This document shows positions 13,498 to 41,914 of a stretch of 64,000 nucleotides of DNA, piece after piece. Under the pieces are notes generated by a model. It had not been told where the DNA came from, ran no database searches, and was given only the letters and a program-made list of their open reading frames with translations. Position 1 is the first letter of the stretch, and each line of letters begins with the position of its first letter. This DNA is from an uncultured bacterium (GTDB taxonomy: Bacteria; Babelota; Babeliae; Babelales; Vermiphilaceae). A program made the position numbers and the translations under genes. The stretch spans positions 448,001 to 512,000 of the forward strand of contig OY970172.1 in the NCBI GenBank assembly GCA_963707655.1, written 5' to 3'.

Positions 13498-13572
13498 TGG
13501 GGCGTGGCCAAGTGGTAAGGCACCGGTTTTTGGTACCGGCATTCGGAGGTTCGAATCCTTCCGCCCCAGCCA
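13498..13572 (+). tRNA. tRNA-Gln (TTG)
   Basis: tggggcg acceptor stem, ccggt-ttTTGgt-accgg anticodon arm, ggttcgaatcc T-loop, encoded CCA. Confidence 0.97.
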
Positions 13573-33011: not shown

Positions 33012-33362
33012 AAGGTAGACAAGGCAATCGCTTTATGATTAATCGTAAAGAGGAAAGTCCGGACTCCCAACGAACAAGGTACCTCGGAAGAGTAATCAAT
33101 CGAGGGGGGCGTAAGCCCATGGAAAGTGCCACAGAAAATAACCGCCAATCGTCAGTAAAATGGCGTTGGTAAGGGTGAAAATGTGCGGTAAGAGCGCACG
33201 ATTAATGCTAGCAATAGCAATAAGGGGTAAACCCTACCTGGAGCAAGACAAAATAGGCATGTGTCGGTTGTTCGTTCCGGTTTAAACATGCGGGTATGTC
33301 GCTTAGATAAATGGTTGCCACTTGCTCTGCATAGAACAGAATCCGGCTTATTGTTTACCTTT
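33012..33362 (+). ncRNA. rnpB: RNase P RNA
   Basis: gaggaaagtccggactc, agtgccacagaaa, ggtaagagcgcac and acagaatccggctta; termini aaggtagacaa / ttgtttacctt pair (P1). Confidence 0.97.
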
Positions 33363-33477
33363 ATTTTTATATCATTTCGAACAATTCGAAACAGAGATGT
33401 TCATAGTATTCTATAACTAAGTTCTTCTCCCCCCATTCCCATAATATCCACTATAAAAAGGATGAGTAAAAAGCAGC

Positions 33478-34245: not shown

Positions 34246-34428
34246 ACAATTTAGGTGTCCGCTTTCGCCCCATTACCCATTTGATTTACAAAAATATTAT
34301 TACCTGTATTATTAATACTATGTAGTGAAGAAAGCATTTTTTTGTTGTTCTTCATCAGAATATAACGCGCAATTGCGTGTTGGAAAATGGGTAATCTTTT
34401 AGTTAATCAAAAAATAGTGAGAAATATT

Positions 34429-35211
34429 ATGAAAACGATTTTTAAAACATTATTATTTTCAGTGCTTGTTACCGGCTCAACACTTTTTTCAAGCGAGTTG
34501 ACCCAATTAACAGATGTATCTCCGAACAAAGTAGAAATTGCATGGGATGTGCATGATGTGCTGGTTAAACCGCACCACTGGACAAAAATAGTTTCGCATT
34601 CTTGTAAACACGGTGGTTGGCCTTTGGCGCAAGCCATAGGATCCTTGGTCTTTTATGACTCGGTGAAATCACTCTTTACTCTGCAAATGCAAGGAAGCTG
34701 GAAAGTGGCAAAAGAGAGTTACCAAATTATTAAACAAGGCGGTACCGGTGATAGCATTAGGCATAAGATAAATCAGTATGATGAAAGACTTGGCCAATCT
34801 GCCAATGGGGTTATTGCTAATATGTTTGATCCTATGCCTGGCATGGCGAACGTTACAAAAGAGTTAGCACAATTAGGTTATTCTCAACGTCTATGCACTA
34901 ACGGCGGTTCTGGCGAGATAGAAATCGTAAAACAATCATTACCAGAAGTATTTGAATCACTCGAAGTTGGAAAAACGGTTGTTTATCAAGAAGATGGTAC
35001 TTTCAGTTCCAAAAAACCGTCATTACAATATTTTACTGAGTACCAAGATACCTATAACCCTGACCGAACAAAAACTATCGTTTTTATTGATGATAAGATG
35101 GAAAACGTTATCGGTGCTCGCGAAGCAGGCCTTACTGCCATACTTTTTGAAAATGCTGAACAGGTACGCGCTGATTTTAAAACATTGGGTATTCCTCTAG
35201 CGAATCTCTAA
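34429..35211 (+). CDS. HAD-superfamily hydrolase with signal peptide
   Basis: WDVHDV (motif I), CTN, KKP, FIDDKMENVIGAREAGL. Confidence 0.8.
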   Translation: MKTIFKTLLFSVLVTGSTLFSSELTQLTDVSPNKVEIAWDVHDVLVKPHHWTKIVSHSCKHGGWPLAQAIGSLVFYDSVKSLFTLQMQGSWKVAKESYQIIKQGGTGDSIRHKINQYDERLGQSANGVIANMFDPMPGMANVTKELAQLGYSQRLCTNGGSGEIEIVKQSLPEVFESLEVGKTVVYQEDGTFSSKKPSLQYFTEYQDTYNPDRTKTIVFIDDKMENVIGAREAGLTAILFENAEQVRADFKTLGIPLANL

Positions 35212-35268: not shown

Positions 35269-37998
35269 TTATTCAAGGTTATATTCTTTGCAGCGCCTAT
35301 TAACCGATGAGCGGTTTACCCCCAGAAAGGCAGCAATTTGATTCTGGTTTTTAAATTTGTTCCAGAGCATTGCCATTACTTTTTCATTACGCAGCGCATG
35401 CTTGCCCAAATCTGCTGCTTGTAACAGCTCCGGGTCATTGCTAACATGCACCGGCTGAAACTTGGTTTCTTCATAAATATTATGTTTCTTTGATTTGTGT
35501 ATGAGCAAGTTTTGCACTTTTGTTTTGAGCTCTATCAAGCTGACTGGCCGCGCACCGACCAATTTGTCTTTCTCTTTTTCATTTAACTCAAGAATATTCT
35601 TAAAATCATCTGTCTTTACCGTTTGCGCGCTAAATCCTTCTGCCAAATTGTGCAATTCCGATGCAGGCAATGTAGCCAACGGCGGCATGCTCAATGATGT
35701 TTTTTTTAATTCTTCGTACAGCGTTTTTGAAAATCTATTTTCTTCTACGAGTGCTGCGAGATTTTTATCGCTTGAACAGATGATGCGTATATTGCCCTGA
35801 TTTTTTTGATCACTTTTGAACGTGCCCCAAAAACCTGTTTTTAAATATTCAGCTAAATATTCTTGCGTTTCTTTGTCTAAGAAATCAACATTTTTAATAA
35901 ACAAAGTGCCGATATTATCAAGTTTTTCAAAAAGTGGTCGCTCGGTAGTTTTTATGCCAAAAATAGGGTTTATGCCAAAGATTTTTATGAGATAATCATT
36001 GTCCTTGACCGGTTCGTGCAAGCTTATAGTATGCAATGTCTCACGCAAATTAATGTGATGGATCAATTCAACCATTGCCTTTGTATCCTCCTCAGGAAGG
36101 TCCAACAGAAGGGCATTATTGCTCATGCCGATTTTGAGCAGATCGATCTTAAAATTAAGGAGCACTTCCCCTGAACCGGGTATGAGTTGATTAATTAATT
36201 GGCCCGACTTGGTGGTCTCTAGATACAGCAAGTAATCCCACTTGGTTGGGTCTTTAAGAAAAGAAATTTGCTTTTTTATAATGTCTGAAATTTCCGGATG
36301 ATAGATGGTGATAATGACATTGTTTTGCTCAAGATTGGGCACGCCGGATATAATAATTTTTTTACCGTCAGCATCGGTCGAAAAGGTGGTTTTTGAAATC
36401 TTGTATTCTTCTACCTGACTCCCCACTTCGCGTATTGCTTTGCTCAATGGATGACCCTCTTGCAGATTAAGATTTATTTTAATTAATTCTTTTGCAGCCT
36501 GATTGCCAAAAATAAAGCGACGATTTTTATAAAAGATAATGCCAATATCTTTTTGGTTATTCATGCGCAAGAATGAGCGCATGCTTTCTTTATACTGCAT
36601 GATTTCTTGCTCTTTATTATGCAATTCTTCTTTGAGCTCTTTTTCTTGCTGGACCAGTAAATCAAGATTCCTATTTTGTAATAAATTAATGATATTACCC
36701 AAGTAATTGGCAAAGACCAGCATCTCGTCATGGTCAACAATGCTATACAATTTGTTGGGACGCGCATTAAATTCTATGACCATATACGCGATAACTTTCT
36801 GCTTTTGATAAATGGGCAAAAACAGATCCGCATTAATTTTTTCAAGGAAATGAATCAAGGCACTGCGTCGCTTGTCTTCATCATAAAAATTGTTAAAGGT
36901 AAGTTCATCATAAATCAGAATTTGTGATTTTTTTATGAAATCACAAATATCGTTATCATGGGTACCCATAAAATCTTCAATGAATTGTTCTATTGAATGC
37001 AGTTGCTGAAATTGCATTTTACTGCTGTCATTGCGCACAATAAGCGTAACTTTTTTATGGGGAATGGTGAGAGATTTTTTTAAAAATGTTTGGGTAACTT
37101 GGGACAATTCATGAATGCCGCTCACTTTGCTAAGCTGTTCAAGAACTTCTTTAAACGTATCGACAAAGTTTGCGCGCTGCTTGGCGTGCAGATGCTTATC
37201 AAAATTGAGAAATCTGAGACCCAACACCTTTTGAATGCAGTAAAAAATACTATAACTGATTAAAAGAGTAGAGACACCCAAAATACTCGATTCGTAGATC
37301 TGTTGATGGAAAAAATGCTGTGCGGCGATAATACATTCCGCCAAAAGAAAAGGACAAAGCAGGTAAGAAATCAACACGGTGAGTTGTATTTTAAGAATTT
37401 TCGGTAATTTTTCTGTCCGTATGTTCTTGAAGGTAAAGAAAAGTGCCGGCAATATGACAATTGCCAAGAGATACAAGCTTACGTAACGTATGATGTTTAA
37501 CTCAAGTGATGATTGCAATGATGCGTCTGCCAACGCAGCATAGCGCTCCGCTTCATCAGTGAGATTATTATCAAAGAAAGCGATATAAATAAAATAAAAA
37601 ATCGTTGCCCCGCTCAAGGCTGTAGTAAATTTTTGCCACAAATTCAAACGATATTTTTTGTGAACAAAGCTTTCTATAAAGAGAGCAAGGAACTGATACT
37701 GCATAACCATTGCTGCCCACGAACAGCGAACAATAAAGATATGAAGACCGTAGGGAATCCACGGGAAGAAGATTTGTCGCGTTAGCTTGCTTATCCAGGC
37801 AACATCGCCAACCATTGATCCAAGTAATATCAATAGGAGAAAAAGCCACGGAAGCTTAAAAGATGAAGTGCGCAATCCCTTGGGAACCAAGAGCGTTATC
37901 AAATATATTTTTATGCTTAGGGCCACCCACATAGTAAATAAGAGAAAATGGGGCGTTTTCAGCATGGCATAGAGCGAAGATAGTGATTCTATAGGCAT
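35269..37998 (-). CDS. Membrane-anchored one-component regulator 1 (multi-TM / GAF-like / PAS-like / degenerate sigma54-type AAA / Fis HTH)
   Basis: About seven hydrophobic segments in the first 260 aa; GTLFIKNV, NIRIICSS..L..LVEENRFSKTLY and MPPL; C-terminal NQNQIAAFLGVNRSSVNRRCK. Confidence 0.85.
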   Translation of the reverse strand: MPIESLSSLYAMLKTPHFLLFTMWVALSIKIYLITLLVPKGLRTSSFKLPWLFLLLILLGSMVGDVAWISKLTRQIFFPWIPYGLHIFIVRCSWAAMVMQYQFLALFIESFVHKKYRLNLWQKFTTALSGATIFYFIYIAFFDNNLTDEAERYAALADASLQSSLELNIIRYVSLYLLAIVILPALFFTFKNIRTEKLPKILKIQLTVLISYLLCPFLLAECIIAAQHFFHQQIYESSILGVSTLLISYSIFYCIQKVLGLRFLNFDKHLHAKQRANFVDTFKEVLEQLSKVSGIHELSQVTQTFLKKSLTIPHKKVTLIVRNDSSKMQFQQLHSIEQFIEDFMGTHDNDICDFIKKSQILIYDELTFNNFYDEDKRRSALIHFLEKINADLFLPIYQKQKVIAYMVIEFNARPNKLYSIVDHDEMLVFANYLGNIINLLQNRNLDLLVQQEKELKEELHNKEQEIMQYKESMRSFLRMNNQKDIGIIFYKNRRFIFGNQAAKELIKINLNLQEGHPLSKAIREVGSQVEEYKISKTTFSTDADGKKIIISGVPNLEQNNVIITIYHPEISDIIKKQISFLKDPTKWDYLLYLETTKSGQLINQLIPGSGEVLLNFKIDLLKIGMSNNALLLDLPEEDTKAMVELIHHINLRETLHTISLHEPVKDNDYLIKIFGINPIFGIKTTERPLFEKLDNIGTLFIKNVDFLDKETQEYLAEYLKTGFWGTFKSDQKNQGNIRIICSSDKNLAALVEENRFSKTLYEELKKTSLSMPPLATLPASELHNLAEGFSAQTVKTDDFKNILELNEKEKDKLVGARPVSLIELKTKVQNLLIHKSKKHNIYEETKFQPVHVSNDPELLQAADLGKHALRNEKVMAMLWNKFKNQNQIAAFLGVNRSSVNRRCKEYNLE

Positions 37999-38003
37999 AA
38001 CTA

Positions 38004-38032
38004 TTGATCTTCCTTTTGACTGCTATTATACT
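38004..38032 (+). promoter_or_regulatory. sigma70-type promoter of micro-ORF 1
   Basis: TTGATC-N17-TATACT; same hexamers and spacing as at 40963. Confidence 0.7.
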
Positions 38033-38093
38033 ACTACTCCATAATACTAAAGCCACAAATAATTTCTAACAACTTTATGTTTAAGGATTGCTA

Positions 38094-38174
38094 ATGATCA
38101 GTTTGTTTTTCATGAAACTTCTCACTCTTGCTTTTTTTGTTGTTATGCTGCTCCGCTACCCGCCTAATGCGTAA
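38094..38174 (+). CDS. Micro-ORF 1, 26 aa MISLFFMKLLTLAFFVVMLLRYPPNA
   Basis: taagga RBS; divergent from regulator 1; shares C-terminal aromatic-PPN-x-stop with micro-ORF 2. Confidence 0.65.
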   Translation: MISLFFMKLLTLAFFVVMLLRYPPNA

Positions 38175-38263
38175 TAGCTTAGCTTCTCGCACCGAACAGA
38201 AGAAGTAAAGACACACTTGTGATATTATTGCAGAAAAATAGTCTTTTTACTAAAGCCTATTTT

Positions 38264-40957
38264 TTACTCTAAATTAAACTCTTTGCATCGTCTATTGACT
38301 GATGAGCGGTTGACGCCTAAAAATGACGCGATTTTATTCTGATTCTTAAATTTATCCCACAACATTACCATGATCCGCTGATCGCGCAGGGCATGTTTGC
38401 CCAGACGCGCGGCTTGAATAAGTTCAGGAGACGTTGTCTCATACGCAGCATGAAACTGCGGCTCATGTTCTATCTCGTTTTTCTTTGATTTTGCTATTAA
38501 TAATTGCTGAATCTTTGTTTTAAGCTCTTGCAGACTTATTGGTCGGACAAGAGCTATTTTTGTTTTCTCTTTATCGGTAAGCTCAAACAAATTCCCCAGG
38601 GGCTGTTCTTGGAGCGCAATAGCGCTAAAACCATCAGCCAATGTATCAAGTTCATTTTGAGGCAAAGTGAGCAATGATGGCATGCTTAAACTTGTTTTTT
38701 TCAGCTCATTAAACAACGCCGCAGAAAAAGTGCCCTCATGCACGCGTGCGGATAAATTCTGGTTACTTGAACAGATAATGCGCACCGAGCTGCTTATTTT
38801 CTGGTCGCTTTTAAAGACACGGAATATGCCATATTTTAAATATTCAGCTAAATATTCCTGCGCTTCCATCTCTAAAAAGTGAATGTTTTCTATAAAAAGA
38901 GTTGCCGTGTTATCAAGCTTTTCAAGCAACGATTTGTTTGGCGATGTGCTAAAAATAGGATTAATGCCAAACAGTTTGATTGCATTTTCAAAATTGCGTG
39001 CCGGTGATTGCAGAGTGAGAATATGCAGCGTATCACGCAGGCTGATATGGTGTATGATTTCAACGGTGGGCATAAGATCTTCAGTAGACATTTCAAGCAA
39101 AAGCGCTTTTTTGGTGAGCGCCATTTTGAGAAACTCAATTTTAAAATTGAGCAACGTTTCACCCGATCCGGGAATAAGTTGGTTAATTAACTGGCCCGAC
39201 TTGGTCGTCTCCAGATAGAGAAGATAATCCCATTTGGTTGGATCTTTGAGCAAATCAATTTGACGTTTTACAATATCGGAAATATCAGGATGATAGAGGG
39301 TAATGATAACATTGTTTTTTTCAAGATTTGGCACGCCGGCAATAACTATTTTGTTGCCATCATTATCAAGAGCAATCATTGATTGCGGCGATTTATATTC
39401 TTCTACCTGAGTGGCAACCTGCTTTATTGCTTTGGTCAGAGGATGTCCCTCGTGCGTATTAAGGTTGATTTTAACCAATTCTTGTGCTGTTTGATTGCCA
39501 AAAGTAAAGCGGCGACTTTTGTAGAATAAGATGCCGATTTCTTTTTGTTTATTGGAGCGCAAAAATGAGCGAATGCTTTCTTTATACTGGTTTATCTCTT
39601 GATGCTTGCCATAAAGCTCCTCTTTGAGCTCTTTTTCATGAGCAAGCAGTGCTTCCAATTTTCGATTCTGTAATAAATAAATAATATTACCTACATAGTT
39701 GGCAAAGACCAACATCTCATCCTGCTCAACCTTGCTATAAAAATTATTGTTGCGCGCATAGCGGTCAATAATAATATAAGCGATGAGAATATTGTTTTTA
39801 TAAAGAGGAATAAAAACATCTGCATTAAGCGCTTCTAATAGATTGAGCAATGTTTTTTGCGTCTCTTCCTCATCATAAAAATTAGTAAAATCAAGTTCGT
39901 CGGTGATGAGTATTTCTTTGTTTTTTAATACTTCCACTGCTGCCGATTGCGTTGCAAGGAAAGTTTCAATAACCATTTCAACCCTGTTGTTTTCTCCATT
40001 ACTTTCTCCGTTAACAGCCTGCTTGGCGCGGGTATAAAGCAGTGTGCGATTTACCGGAGTATTAAAATTCTCTTTAAAAAACGTCTGGGTAATATGGCTT
40101 AATTCTTTAGGATTGGTAACCATACTCAGCTGTTCAAGAACATCTTTAAAATTGTTTACAAAGTTGAATCGTGCTGCCGCTTGCACATGATCATTCAGAT
40201 TAAGAAAACGCAAACCGGTCACACGGCGCGAGCAATAATAAATCGCGTAGGCAAGCAAGAGGTTTGAAAGCCCAACCGCTGCATAGCTACTGGTAATATA
40301 TGAGGGAATAACAAAATTGAAAGGATATACTTGGATAAAATCAAAGAAAAGGTGGGGGATAATGAATGCTCTGATAATAATAGAAAGCTGTTTTTTAAGT
40401 AAGCGGGGAAGTTGCTTGTTGCGCAATTGCCAATACACATAAAAGAGACTGGGCATGATGAGCGGGAAAAGGCAATACAAAGAACAGATTCTTTGTAGAT
40501 TATAGAGTATGATGCTTTTCACGCCGGTATGCCAACTGACAAAGGCTTCAGATAAGAACGCAACAACAAAGAATGCACTGAGCAAAAGAAAGATGGCTCG
40601 GCGCAGAGTGATTTTATACTGTGGCTCTACAAAGCTTTCTATAAACAGGGCCAATGATTGATATTGTATTACCGGAAATGCCCATGCGATGCGCACCCAA
40701 AGGGTGGAATCCATGTTAGGAAGAAAAAGCCGTGAAATAAGTTCAACGATCCAGGCTGAGTCAACAACTGATGCGCCAATCAATACACCGCACAAAAGCC
40801 AGATAGATCGGTGAGAGTTTTTAGAGGCAGAAAGACTGCGCGTTAAAAGATAAATCAGTAAAAATATTTTAAAACTGAAAGTACACGCAAGAATGGTTAA
40901 CAAATAGTACTGATTACCCAGTATTGTTTCTAGAGAATGTAGAAAAGTTGTTATCAT
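38264..40957 (-). CDS. Membrane-anchored one-component regulator 2, paralog of 35269..37998
   Basis: Same architecture; identical blocks such as LKDPTKWDYLLYLETTKSGQLINQLIPGSGE and FLGVNRSSVNRRCKE. Confidence 0.85.
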   Translation of the reverse strand: MITTFLHSLETILGNQYYLLTILACTFSFKIFLLIYLLTRSLSASKNSHRSIWLLCGVLIGASVVDSAWIVELISRLFLPNMDSTLWVRIAWAFPVIQYQSLALFIESFVEPQYKITLRRAIFLLLSAFFVVAFLSEAFVSWHTGVKSIILYNLQRICSLYCLFPLIMPSLFYVYWQLRNKQLPRLLKKQLSIIIRAFIIPHLFFDFIQVYPFNFVIPSYITSSYAAVGLSNLLLAYAIYYCSRRVTGLRFLNLNDHVQAAARFNFVNNFKDVLEQLSMVTNPKELSHITQTFFKENFNTPVNRTLLYTRAKQAVNGESNGENNRVEMVIETFLATQSAAVEVLKNKEILITDELDFTNFYDEEETQKTLLNLLEALNADVFIPLYKNNILIAYIIIDRYARNNNFYSKVEQDEMLVFANYVGNIIYLLQNRKLEALLAHEKELKEELYGKHQEINQYKESIRSFLRSNKQKEIGILFYKSRRFTFGNQTAQELVKINLNTHEGHPLTKAIKQVATQVEEYKSPQSMIALDNDGNKIVIAGVPNLEKNNVIITLYHPDISDIVKRQIDLLKDPTKWDYLLYLETTKSGQLINQLIPGSGETLLNFKIEFLKMALTKKALLLEMSTEDLMPTVEIIHHISLRDTLHILTLQSPARNFENAIKLFGINPIFSTSPNKSLLEKLDNTATLFIENIHFLEMEAQEYLAEYLKYGIFRVFKSDQKISSSVRIICSSNQNLSARVHEGTFSAALFNELKKTSLSMPSLLTLPQNELDTLADGFSAIALQEQPLGNLFELTDKEKTKIALVRPISLQELKTKIQQLLIAKSKKNEIEHEPQFHAAYETTSPELIQAARLGKHALRDQRIMVMLWDKFKNQNKIASFLGVNRSSVNRRCKEFNLE

Positions 40958-40962
40958 AACTA

Positions 40963-40991
40963 TTGATCTTCAATATTCAAAAAGCTATACT
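40963..40991 (+). promoter_or_regulatory. sigma70-type promoter of micro-ORF 2
   Basis: TTGATC-N17-TATACT. Confidence 0.7.
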
Positions 40992-41033
40992 TGTCTTCAA
41001 ATTTCACCGAGCTATTTCCTTAGGAGGATTTCT

Positions 41034-41141
41034 ATGAACAAACTGAAAAATGTTATCAATTTCCTGTGTTCTCCCTACTTTCAAGTAGCAGTTGCGCTGG
41101 TTATGGTATTTGCATTTGATGAATTTCCACCAAACAGATAA
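41034..41141 (+). CDS. Micro-ORF 2, 35 aa MNKLKNVINFLCSPYFQVAVALVMVFAFDEFPPNR
   Basis: Strong taggagg RBS 6 nt upstream; divergent from regulator 2; hydrophobic core and FPPNR end. Confidence 0.75.
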   Translation: MNKLKNVINFLCSPYFQVAVALVMVFAFDEFPPNR

Positions 41142-41251
41142 ATCATCTTGTTTCTTGATTCTACCATAAATGGTAAACATGAACAAATTGGGTTTTAATG
41201 CGCCTGGAAATTCAATAATGGCAATTAAAATTTTTATTAGAGGTGCATGAC

Positions 41252-41914
41252 ATGACTGAGCGTGAACGGGTGGAAAAAATTATCCATCTCTTGCGCAAAA
41301 ATACCGTTGGTATGGTCGATCCTGCATCTCTTTCTCTTATTAAAAAATTCGGTCACAATCCGTTTATTGTCCTGGTAGGCTGCATGCTCAGCCTCCGCAC
41401 TCAAGATAAAGTCTCTCTCCCTGCATCGCTCAGGCTCTTTGAGCACGCAAAAACTCCTCAAGAAATACTGTCACTCCCGCTCCATTCGCTAGAAAAACTG
41501 ATTTATCCGGTTGGTTTTTATCGTAATAAAGCAAAATATATTCATTTGACCTGCAAAAAGCTAATTCAAGATTTTAATGGCACAGTGCCACAAACACGAG
41601 ACGAGCTTCTTACATTGCCCGGCGTCGGACGCAAAACTGCCAATCTCGTTTTGGGAGAGGCATTTGGCATTCCGGCTATTTGTGTTGATACCCATGTGCA
41701 TAAAGTTTCTAATCGTTTGGGCATTGTAGCCACAACAACAGTTGAAGAAACAGAAGAAGCACTCATGAAAGTGCTTCCTGAAAAATATTGGATCGAATAC
41801 AATCGGCTTTTGGTTATGTGGGGGCAAAATGTTTGTTTGCCCATCTCGCCACTCTGTTCACAATGCGTTCTTTTGCCGCTCTGCCCGCAAAAAGGTGTTA
41901 TCCGCCACCGTTAA
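41252..41914 (+). CDS. nth: Endonuclease III
   Basis: HhH LPGVGRKTAN, VDTHV, and C-x6-C-x2-C-x5-C iron-sulfur motif. Confidence 0.95.
   Translation: MTERERVEKIIHLLRKNTVGMVDPASLSLIKKFGHNPFIVLVGCMLSLRTQDKVSLPASLRLFEHAKTPQEILSLPLHSLEKLIYPVGFYRNKAKYIHLTCKKLIQDFNGTVPQTRDELLTLPGVGRKTANLVLGEAFGIPAICVDTHVHKVSNRLGIVATTTVEETEEALMKVLPEKYWIEYNRLLVMWGQNVCLPISPLCSQCVLLPLCPQKGVIRHR

Follow-up and report, generated by a model that had tools for sequence, protein, structure and literature searches.

A duplicated module of micropeptide genes and seven-helix regulators, resembling a peptide-and-receptor switch, in a Vermiphilaceae genome

Peptide-receptor cassettes are textbook biology in Bacillota and, to our knowledge, are essentially undescribed in diderm candidate phyla. 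The short hydrophobic peptides (SHPs) of the Rgg/SHP systems have a basic N-terminus, a hydrophobic body, and a presumed active C-terminus that often starts at an acidic residue. Phr, PapR, and NprX are made as a signal peptide, a pro-region, and a C-terminal active peptide. AgrC and ComD are polytopic membrane receptors of exported, genome-adjacent peptides, and their paralogous systems have distinct specificities. MgrB is a micro-protein of N-in/C-out topology that exerts feedback on the membrane or periplasmic part of PhoQ. Here, we describe a duplicated module in a 64,000-nucleotide stretch of DNA (the window; contig OY970172.1 of assembly GCA_963707655.1, positions 448,001 to 512,000) from an uncultured member of the Vermiphilaceae, in which each of two micro open reading frames (micro-ORFs) stands beside the gene of a regulator of about 900 residues with a predicted seven-transmembrane-helix (7TM) domain. 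To judge from its genes, the module looks like an undescribed peptide-and-receptor switch; among the matches listed in our search of the literature on Dependentiae regulators and quorum sensing, we found no description of such a peptide/7TM-regulator pair.

Micro-ORF 1 (38094..38174, plus strand) encodes 26 residues with a hydrophobic core and the tail R-Y-P-P-N-A, and is head-to-head with the minus-strand gene of regulator paralog B (35269..37998, 909 residues). Micro-ORF 2 (41034..41141, plus strand) encodes 35 residues with the basic N-terminus MNKLK, a hydrophobic core, and the tail D-E-F-P-P-N-R, and is likewise head-to-head with the minus-strand gene of paralog A (38264..40957, 897 residues). 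An earlier note on this DNA had proposed both, and both lie where it placed them, with ATG starts, Shine-Dalgarno sites (AAGGA at 38083..38087, plus strand, 6 nt before the first ATG; AGGAGGA at 41022..41028, plus strand, 5 nt before the second), and the tail codons it gave (tac ccg cct aat in micro-ORF 1; ttt cca cca aac in micro-ORF 2). Upstream, the frame of micro-ORF 1 stays open as far as a TTG at 38088, whose ribosome site is poorer than that of the ATG at 38094. The note also held that ORF calling had missed the pair, which is so for micro-ORF 1, uncalled and absent from public collections, but not for micro-ORF 2, already called there as an unnamed protein (5 of 10 peptides looked up were present). 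The two regulators are paralogs, 51% identical, with a shared architecture. The DNA upstream of them can be aligned over only about 17 nt, beside the start codons, and the likeness of the two peptides is therefore not left-over duplicated DNA.

How does this arrangement compare with the described systems? As in Rgg/SHP and ComR/ComS of streptococci (RRNPP systems), a gene for a hydrophobic peptide of 20-35 residues divergently adjoins that of a regulator, here in 58 of 80 loci (ORFs of 15-70 residues). Passages of two papers name PptAB and Eep, an RseP-type protease, for the export and processing of SHPs (PMC7564271, PMC5167397), and the source genome encodes an M50 protease, a likeness at the level of genes that is compatible with Eep-type processing. 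The receptors, however, are cytoplasmic helix-turn-helix (HTH)-TPR proteins in Rgg/SHP, whereas Pfam, NCBIfam, and structural modelling indicate here a 7TM domain, GAF/PAS-like modules, a dead AAA+ domain, and an HTH. The streptococcal peptide is re-imported (Opp), whereas a 7TM receptor would need no re-import; and Rgg/SHP belongs to Bacillota, whereas the present module is found in diderm Dependentiae, has a Pro-Pro (PP) tail, and shows no sequence relation to it. The likeness to AgrC and ComD lies in a polytopic membrane domain that would sense a small, genome-adjacent peptide. Their output is a histidine kinase, however, whereas here we find a fused, DNA-binding one-component regulator with no histidine kinase domain in Pfam.

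The sequence evidence indicates that both micro-ORFs are real, conserved genes and not chance ORFs. We gathered 103 loci around regulator homologs in Babeliales/Dependentiae. Viewed unfiltered, the first 29 usable loci had a near-universal ORF on the opposite strand, 75-140 nt from the regulator ATG, that begins with basic residues, continues as a hydrophobic stretch, and has PP shortly before its stop. A rule set after this first batch had been seen (an ORF of 15-70 residues, a mean hydropathy of at least 1.9 in an 11-residue window, and PP no more than 6 residues from the end) was then applied to 80 loci. Upstream of the regulator, it was matched on the divergent strand in the 58 loci given above and on the same strand in 2/80. 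Downstream, the same strand gave no match, and the matches on the opposite strand, in 13 loci, are peptide genes that belong to a further regulator in tandem. Shuffled sequences gave 3 matches in 1600, and the later batch alone (L032 onwards) gave 35 in 52 loci. Because the rule demands PP, the invariance of PP under it is circular, and we added a PP-free test, by which PP stands within the last 8 residues in 59 of 129 divergent hydrophobic small ORFs upstream of regulators (46%), compared with 2 of 47 on the same strand and 67 of 4368 in the whole genome (1.5%). By the strict rule, a peptide gene accompanies 73 of 107 regulator N-termini.

The physical pairing of micro-ORFs with this regulator family, which the earlier note had put forward from two cases, is thus conserved across Babeliales, and its view that the module was duplicated as a unit also holds: 13 tandem arrangements show the peptide gene copied along with its regulator, where it lies between the two regulator genes and lacks a downstream gene on its own strand. 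Within the source genome (one contig of 1.09 Mb, 41% G+C, 88.6% complete by markers), 7 of 2580 intergenic small ORFs fit the rule; 2 of the 7 are micro-ORFs 1 and 2, and the other 5 look unrelated, leaving no further copies away from regulators.

Could the DNA beside the regulator start be conserved for another reason, as a promoter, 5' leader, or antisense RNA of the regulator in which the open frame is incidental? It is indeed conserved as a promoter (below), but we consider a purely non-coding explanation highly improbable. All 59 peptides (59/59) have an ATG start behind a Shine-Dalgarno-like site, and frame and motif are kept though the DNA of the two modules does not align. Third-position differences are in excess: compared with its sister-genus ortholog (which ends RYPPTTVQQD), micro-ORF 1 has 10 identical codons, 8 synonymous and 8 non-synonymous changes, and 7/3/13 differences by codon position, while for micro-ORF 2, which has orthologs in L003 and L035, the differences are 8/12/23 and 14/5/20 (8/12/23 being the count against the sister genus). 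The PP-end enrichment stands against the non-coding explanation as well, and an Rfam scan of the module region returned nothing relevant.

In the window, a sigma-70-like promoter, TTGATC-N17-TATACT, precedes each micro-ORF on the plus strand (38004..38032 for micro-ORF 1; 40963..40991 for micro-ORF 2), its -35 element starting 5 nt beyond the start codon of regulator B or A, respectively. A pair of the form TTG[AC]nn-N16-18-TAnnnT, starting at most 12 nt from the regulator start, occurs in 50 of the 80 loci, with TATACT or TATAAT in 41 of the 50, whereas control offsets give 2/80 and 3/80 and shuffled sequences 32/1600. From these counts it follows that the peptide gene has its own conserved sigma-70-type promoter, interlocked with the 5' end of the regulator gene. 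By alignment, the promoter of micro-ORF 2 is kept in L003, a locus of the same genus.

Two further observations concern this upstream DNA. A direct repeat of 22 nt (40967-40988 and 40994-41015, 77% identical, 27-nt spacing) overlaps the promoter and leader of micro-ORF 2 and is a candidate regulator-binding site. In the most distant regulator clade (L101, L102, and L103), the place of the micropeptide is taken by a divergent ORF of 96-131 residues with a signal-peptide-like start, about 78 nt upstream, behind the promoter TTGACC-N17-TATACT as elsewhere.

The earlier note had taken PPN for the conserved unit and expected short ORFs ending [FY]PPNx upstream of homologous regulators. Homologs do have short, divergent, hydrophobic ORFs there, but the [FY]PPNx end is specific to the source genus and is no family motif: N follows PP in only 3 of 59 peptides, where G (11), A (7), V (7), F (6), and I (4) are also found. 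PP is followed by 2 residues in 35 of the 59, by 1 in 10, and by 3 in 10, and the conserved unit is PP with mostly two residues, not PPN. At position -2 before PP, 23 of the 59 peptides have D or E, while a second class has R at -2 and then F, Y, W, M, or I at -1. When the 107 regulator N-termini are placed in a tree, the 11 R-x-PP peptides all belong to a single clade of 26 rows, which holds the 909-residue regulator of the window, and the clade of the 897-residue regulator carries [DE]-x-PP peptides. R and non-R tails require 5 changes on this tree, compared with a minimum of 8 in 1000 label shuffles. Tail class thus tracks regulator clade, and by their tails micro-ORF 1 (R-aromatic-PP) and micro-ORF 2 ([DE]-x-PP) are members of two old, distinct classes. 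In the tandem genomes examined, the two tails of one genome differ.

A PP two codons before the stop also brings to mind the arrest peptides (SecM, MifM, VemP, ApdA/ApdP, and RAPP), which in sections of two papers combine an N-terminal localisation signal with a Pro-rich motif that precedes the stop by a few codons (PMC12992588, PMC10987492). The ribosome might stall there, in an EF-P-dependent or RAPP-like manner, and so control a neighbouring gene in cis. Consistent with this, the distance from PP to the stop is nearly fixed, the class of regulator B reads R-x-PP, the source genome encodes EF-P (elongation factor P), and part of PMC12992588 describes an enrichment of RAPP-like motifs towards the C-terminal end of small secretory and membrane proteins. 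However, the upstream ORF of the arrest systems is co-directional with the gene it regulates, whereas here micro-ORF 1 points at the 3' end of the gene for regulator A, and it and 12 other tandem cases have no downstream gene on the same strand; micro-ORF 2 is followed by nth. The spacer from hydrophobic signal to PP is 0-3 residues, whereas monitoring substrates, by an account in PMC10987492, need more than 30 for the signal to leave the ribosome. Equally, the Arg of the RAPP core, R-(A/G/S)-P-P, is given in PMC12992588 as irreplaceable and the next residue as small, whereas Arg is missing from the A class and is followed in the B class by F, Y, W, M, or I. PP also lies at varied distances from the stop in multi-copy and long forms of the peptide. 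An arrest leader is accordingly, to our minds, very unlikely. A leader of nth (endonuclease III, HhH-GPD; 41243..41914, plus strand, downstream of micro-ORF 2 and outside the module) was considered separately and rejected, since the peptide travels with the regulator in tandem duplications lacking nth. As an observation in its own right, nth is the conserved neighbour beyond the peptide gene where a single module is present: regulator and nth diverge, and the peptide gene sits between them, in L006, L016, L025, L056, L057, L063, L085, L095, L096, L102, and L103; in L056, L085, L095, and L096, no rule-fitting peptide gene was found between the two.

In light of the micro-ORFs being genes, what might become of their products? 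The hydrophobic core (73 peptides) has a median length of 15 residues (quartiles 13-18), K or R precedes it in 64 of the 73, and the tail comes 0-3 residues after it, in peptides of 18-47 residues and one of 62. Long forms occupy the peptide position in many loci that fail the strict rule (L065, L073, L074, L078, L082, L087, L092, and L099), with a canonical signal peptide, an AXA-like site, a pro-region of about 15-25 hydrophilic residues, and a PP end. There are also multi-unit precursors, with three DDFPPMG-like units after one signal peptide in L060 (1245-1430, minus strand) and two units in L006 and L062, and tandem duplicate peptide genes in L097 and L087. These long and multi-unit forms point to export as the role of the hydrophobic part and to the C-terminal piece containing PP, probably released by processing, as the functional unit. 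Phr, PapR, and NprX show a likeness to the long variants in relatives, which have the same succession of signal peptide, AXA-like site, hydrophilic spacer, and C-terminal motif; those peptides, however, meet their TPR receptors in the cytoplasm, and the peptides of the window are much shorter and have no pro-region. Besides its M50 (RseP-type) protease, the source genome encodes two signal peptidases I; neither a C39 peptidase or exporter nor a dedicated maturation enzyme was found in it.

The main rival to release is a membrane-anchored modulator like MgrB, which would stay uncleaved, N-in/C-out, and dock its helix and PP tail on the cognate 7TM domain as a feedback inhibitor or co-sensor. 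A small N-in/C-out peptide could act on a membrane sensor as MgrB does on PhoQ, and the basic N-terminus and core fit; the tail of the short forms follows directly on the core, without a clear c-region, 23 of 73 cores have at least 18 residues, the conserved divergent promoter fits co-regulation, and peptide class tracks regulator clade. MgrB, on the other hand, is not encoded adjacent to phoQ, carries cysteines in a periplasmic part that is longer, and is not known in multi-copy or signal-peptide forms. Forms with a signal peptide and pro-region, and precursors of two to three units, at the very same position are hard to square with a permanent anchor, and 45 of the 73 cores have only 12-17 residues, with 5 shorter still. 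On balance, we judge anchoring to be rather unlikely.

The earlier note had read the regulators as TM-GAF-PAS-AAA-Fis proteins, an architecture that holds only in part. The N-terminal 290 residues give a model of seven long helices (predicted local distance difference test, pLDDT, 89), and the 7TM domain takes up about residues 1-267 of regulator B (37198-37998, minus strand) and about residues 1-255 of regulator A (40193-40957, minus strand). By the positive-inside rule, its N-terminus and loops 2, 4, and 6 are predicted to face the periplasm. Fold searches with this model return G-protein-coupled receptors (GPCRs), rhodopsins, and adiponectin receptors (Foldseek best E 7e-4, TM-score about 0.5; VIA Z up to 16.7). 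We do not claim GPCR homology, as the match rows are flat, as for generic seven-helix bundles; two sub-threshold DUF matches of the 7TM domains to Pfam, at E up to 10, were likewise dismissed as noise. Residues 255-640 form, in a model of pLDDT 90, two alpha/beta modules joined by a 60-residue helix, with phytochrome PAS-GAF-PHY and phosphodiesterase GAF tandems as the closest folds. Pfam finds no GAF or PAS domain there, and the region is GAF/PAS-like at the level of structure only.

The C-terminal part is that of a sigma-54-type AAA+ regulator, and it is degenerate by alignment. The Pfam match to the sigma-54 interaction domain covers only profile positions 86-167 of 168 (the C-terminal half), and the best NCBIfam matches (DhaR, PspF, NtrX, and TyrR) are all far below their cut-offs and reach the C-terminal HTH. 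Aligned with PspF, GAFTGA has become PIFSTS and the DE of Walker B has become EN. rpoN (PF04552) was not found in the source genome, a single contig at the completeness given above, while controls were positive in 4 genomes. With GAFTGA lost and rpoN not found, the regulator probably acts at sigma-70 promoters. Sigma-54 enhancer-binding proteins, by contrast, have GAFTGA and an intact Walker B and go with rpoN in the genome. TyrR, NtrX, and DhaR, the sigma-54-independent homologs of these proteins, are closer, with weak NCBIfam matches and a lost GAFTGA in common; none of the three, however, is known to have an N-terminal 7TM domain or a paired micropeptide, and in the regulators of the window Walker B is degenerate as well.

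A profile of the 7TM domain retrieved 421 cluster representatives, the best 150 of which are exclusively proteins of about 900 residues or fragments. Of 201 genomes sampled from the phylum, 151 have the regulator family; it is missing from some families, for example f12 (0/23 genomes) and f7 (0/9). In predicted periplasmic loop 4, regulators of the 909-residue type have an insert, about 11 residues long and rich in acidic ones; 9 of 11 regulators paired with R-x-PP peptides have it, as against 3 of 36 paired with acidic peptides, a difference that is confounded with clade. Predictions of the complex between the 7TM domain and micro-ORF 2, run without controls, scored 0.23 and 0.12 against a mark of 0.32, a result that counts neither for nor against binding.

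What, then, might the module do? The reading that we favour, if tentatively, is that the peptide is an exported, processed, extracytoplasmic ligand of its cognate 7TM regulator, which would act at sigma-70 promoters. The micro-ORF would be transcribed from the conserved sigma-70 promoter, back-to-back with the regulator start, and would yield an export-type pre-peptide whose basic N-terminus and hydrophobic core of 13-18 residues insert it N-in/C-out, leaving a short C-terminal tail ([DE]-x-P-P-x-x or R-aromatic-P-P-x-x) on the periplasmic side. This tail would be the active part, released by signal peptidase I or by an RseP-type site-2 protease, and would bind as a ligand to the periplasmic face of the cognate seven-helix domain. 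The signal would pass through the GAF/PAS-like modules to the ATPase-dead AAA+ domain and the HTH, which would control sigma-70 promoters, probably including the shared divergent one, as TyrR-like relatives of the enhancer-binding proteins do. The outcome could be an autocrine, quorum-type, or confinement-sensing loop, and the tandem modules would serve as two independent channels, their tails opposite in charge. The topology, the cleavage and release, the binding to the 7TM domain, the autoregulation, and the biological role are the parts of this scheme that we infer.

Several points weigh against a released ligand. Neither rule finds a peptide at 26 of the 107 regulator N-termini, which include whole basal clades (L079/80, L095/96, and L101-103), and a regulator can therefore exist without a peptide. 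That class follows clade attests to long-term conservation and not to interaction, since adjacent genes are inherited together. The short forms, including both peptides of the window, have almost no polar c-region between core and tail, so that cleavage by signal peptidase is not obvious and membrane anchoring is possible. Charge complementarity between tails and periplasmic loops, which we considered, is unsupported: it follows the A/B clade split, with only 4 independent pairs and no trend. Dependentiae are diderms, and a signal between cells must therefore cross the outer membrane. Finally, the Chromulinavorax genome paper states, in a passage of its text, that quorum-sensing mechanisms are absent (PMC6561590).

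Alternatively, the micro-ORF could encode a real small membrane or exported peptide that shares the promoter region with the regulator, or is one of its targets, and acts elsewhere, for example on the envelope or the host. The evidence for linkage is genomic only, regulators without a peptide exist, and Dependentiae encode many secreted small ORFans, according to part of the same paper (PMC6561590). Yet the pairing of peptide gene and regulator is older than the A/B duplication, the sample contains 13 cases in which both were duplicated together, and the source genome has no copies away from regulators; that the two are mere neighbours is, we think, unlikely. Returning to the released ligand, it is possible, if doubtful, that the pairs make up a phylum-specific signalling system, its parts unrelated to those of any described one, in which a secreted Pro-Pro peptide of 5-8 residues is read by a one-component membrane receptor, a GPCR-like 7TM domain joined to a transcription factor. 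Acidic and arginine tails would then serve as orthogonal channels in tandem genomes, and the system could report crowding or confinement in the host vacuole and time the switch from replication to release.

Dependentiae are obligate parasites of amoebae and other protists, with genomes of about 1 Mb and very few recognisable regulators. A family that is present in 151/201 genomes, with a peptide gene at 73/107 N-termini, is therefore a prime candidate for how these bacteria sense their state. The module is also small enough to test as an example of direct coupling between a seven-helix receptor and DNA binding: its short peptides can be synthesised, and the natural paralog pairs permit specificity swaps.

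Other features of the window are minor. Between the stops of micro-ORF 1 and regulator A lies an AT-rich inverted repeat with arms of 13 nt and a loop of 5 nt (38234..38264), which may be a two-way terminator for the convergent transcripts; a consensus terminator scan of both module regions gave no match, this repeat included. Between micro-ORF 2 and nth, DNA at 41150-41195 is conserved against the sister genus, its frame is closed there by a TAG, and ATGAACAAATTG at 41179-41190 nearly repeats the 12 nt with which micro-ORF 2 begins. This segment could be a decayed second peptide gene or the promoter of nth. An ESM Atlas search with micro-ORF 2 (best score 0.78) led to unnamed clusters and gave no lead. 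Metagenome DNA from four runs gave short identical fragments and one diverged piece (X4) over 41019-41245, with 28 differences, in which the insertions and deletions within micro-ORF 2 sum to zero; this piece is too scant to build on. A look-up of RNA runs listed none with DNA of 37900-41300.

An ORF of about 305-330 residues follows the regulator on the same strand in L006, L007, L011, L014, L016, L019-L022, L025, L027, L028, and L030 and is missing at the window position, where a HAD-family gene (34387-35211, plus strand) converges on the 3' end of regulator B. Farther off, the window holds one tRNA (13498-13569, plus strand) and a bacterial class A RNase P RNA (33012-33365, plus strand, 248.9 bits), which accounts for the overlapping small ORFs upstream of the PASTA-domain gene.

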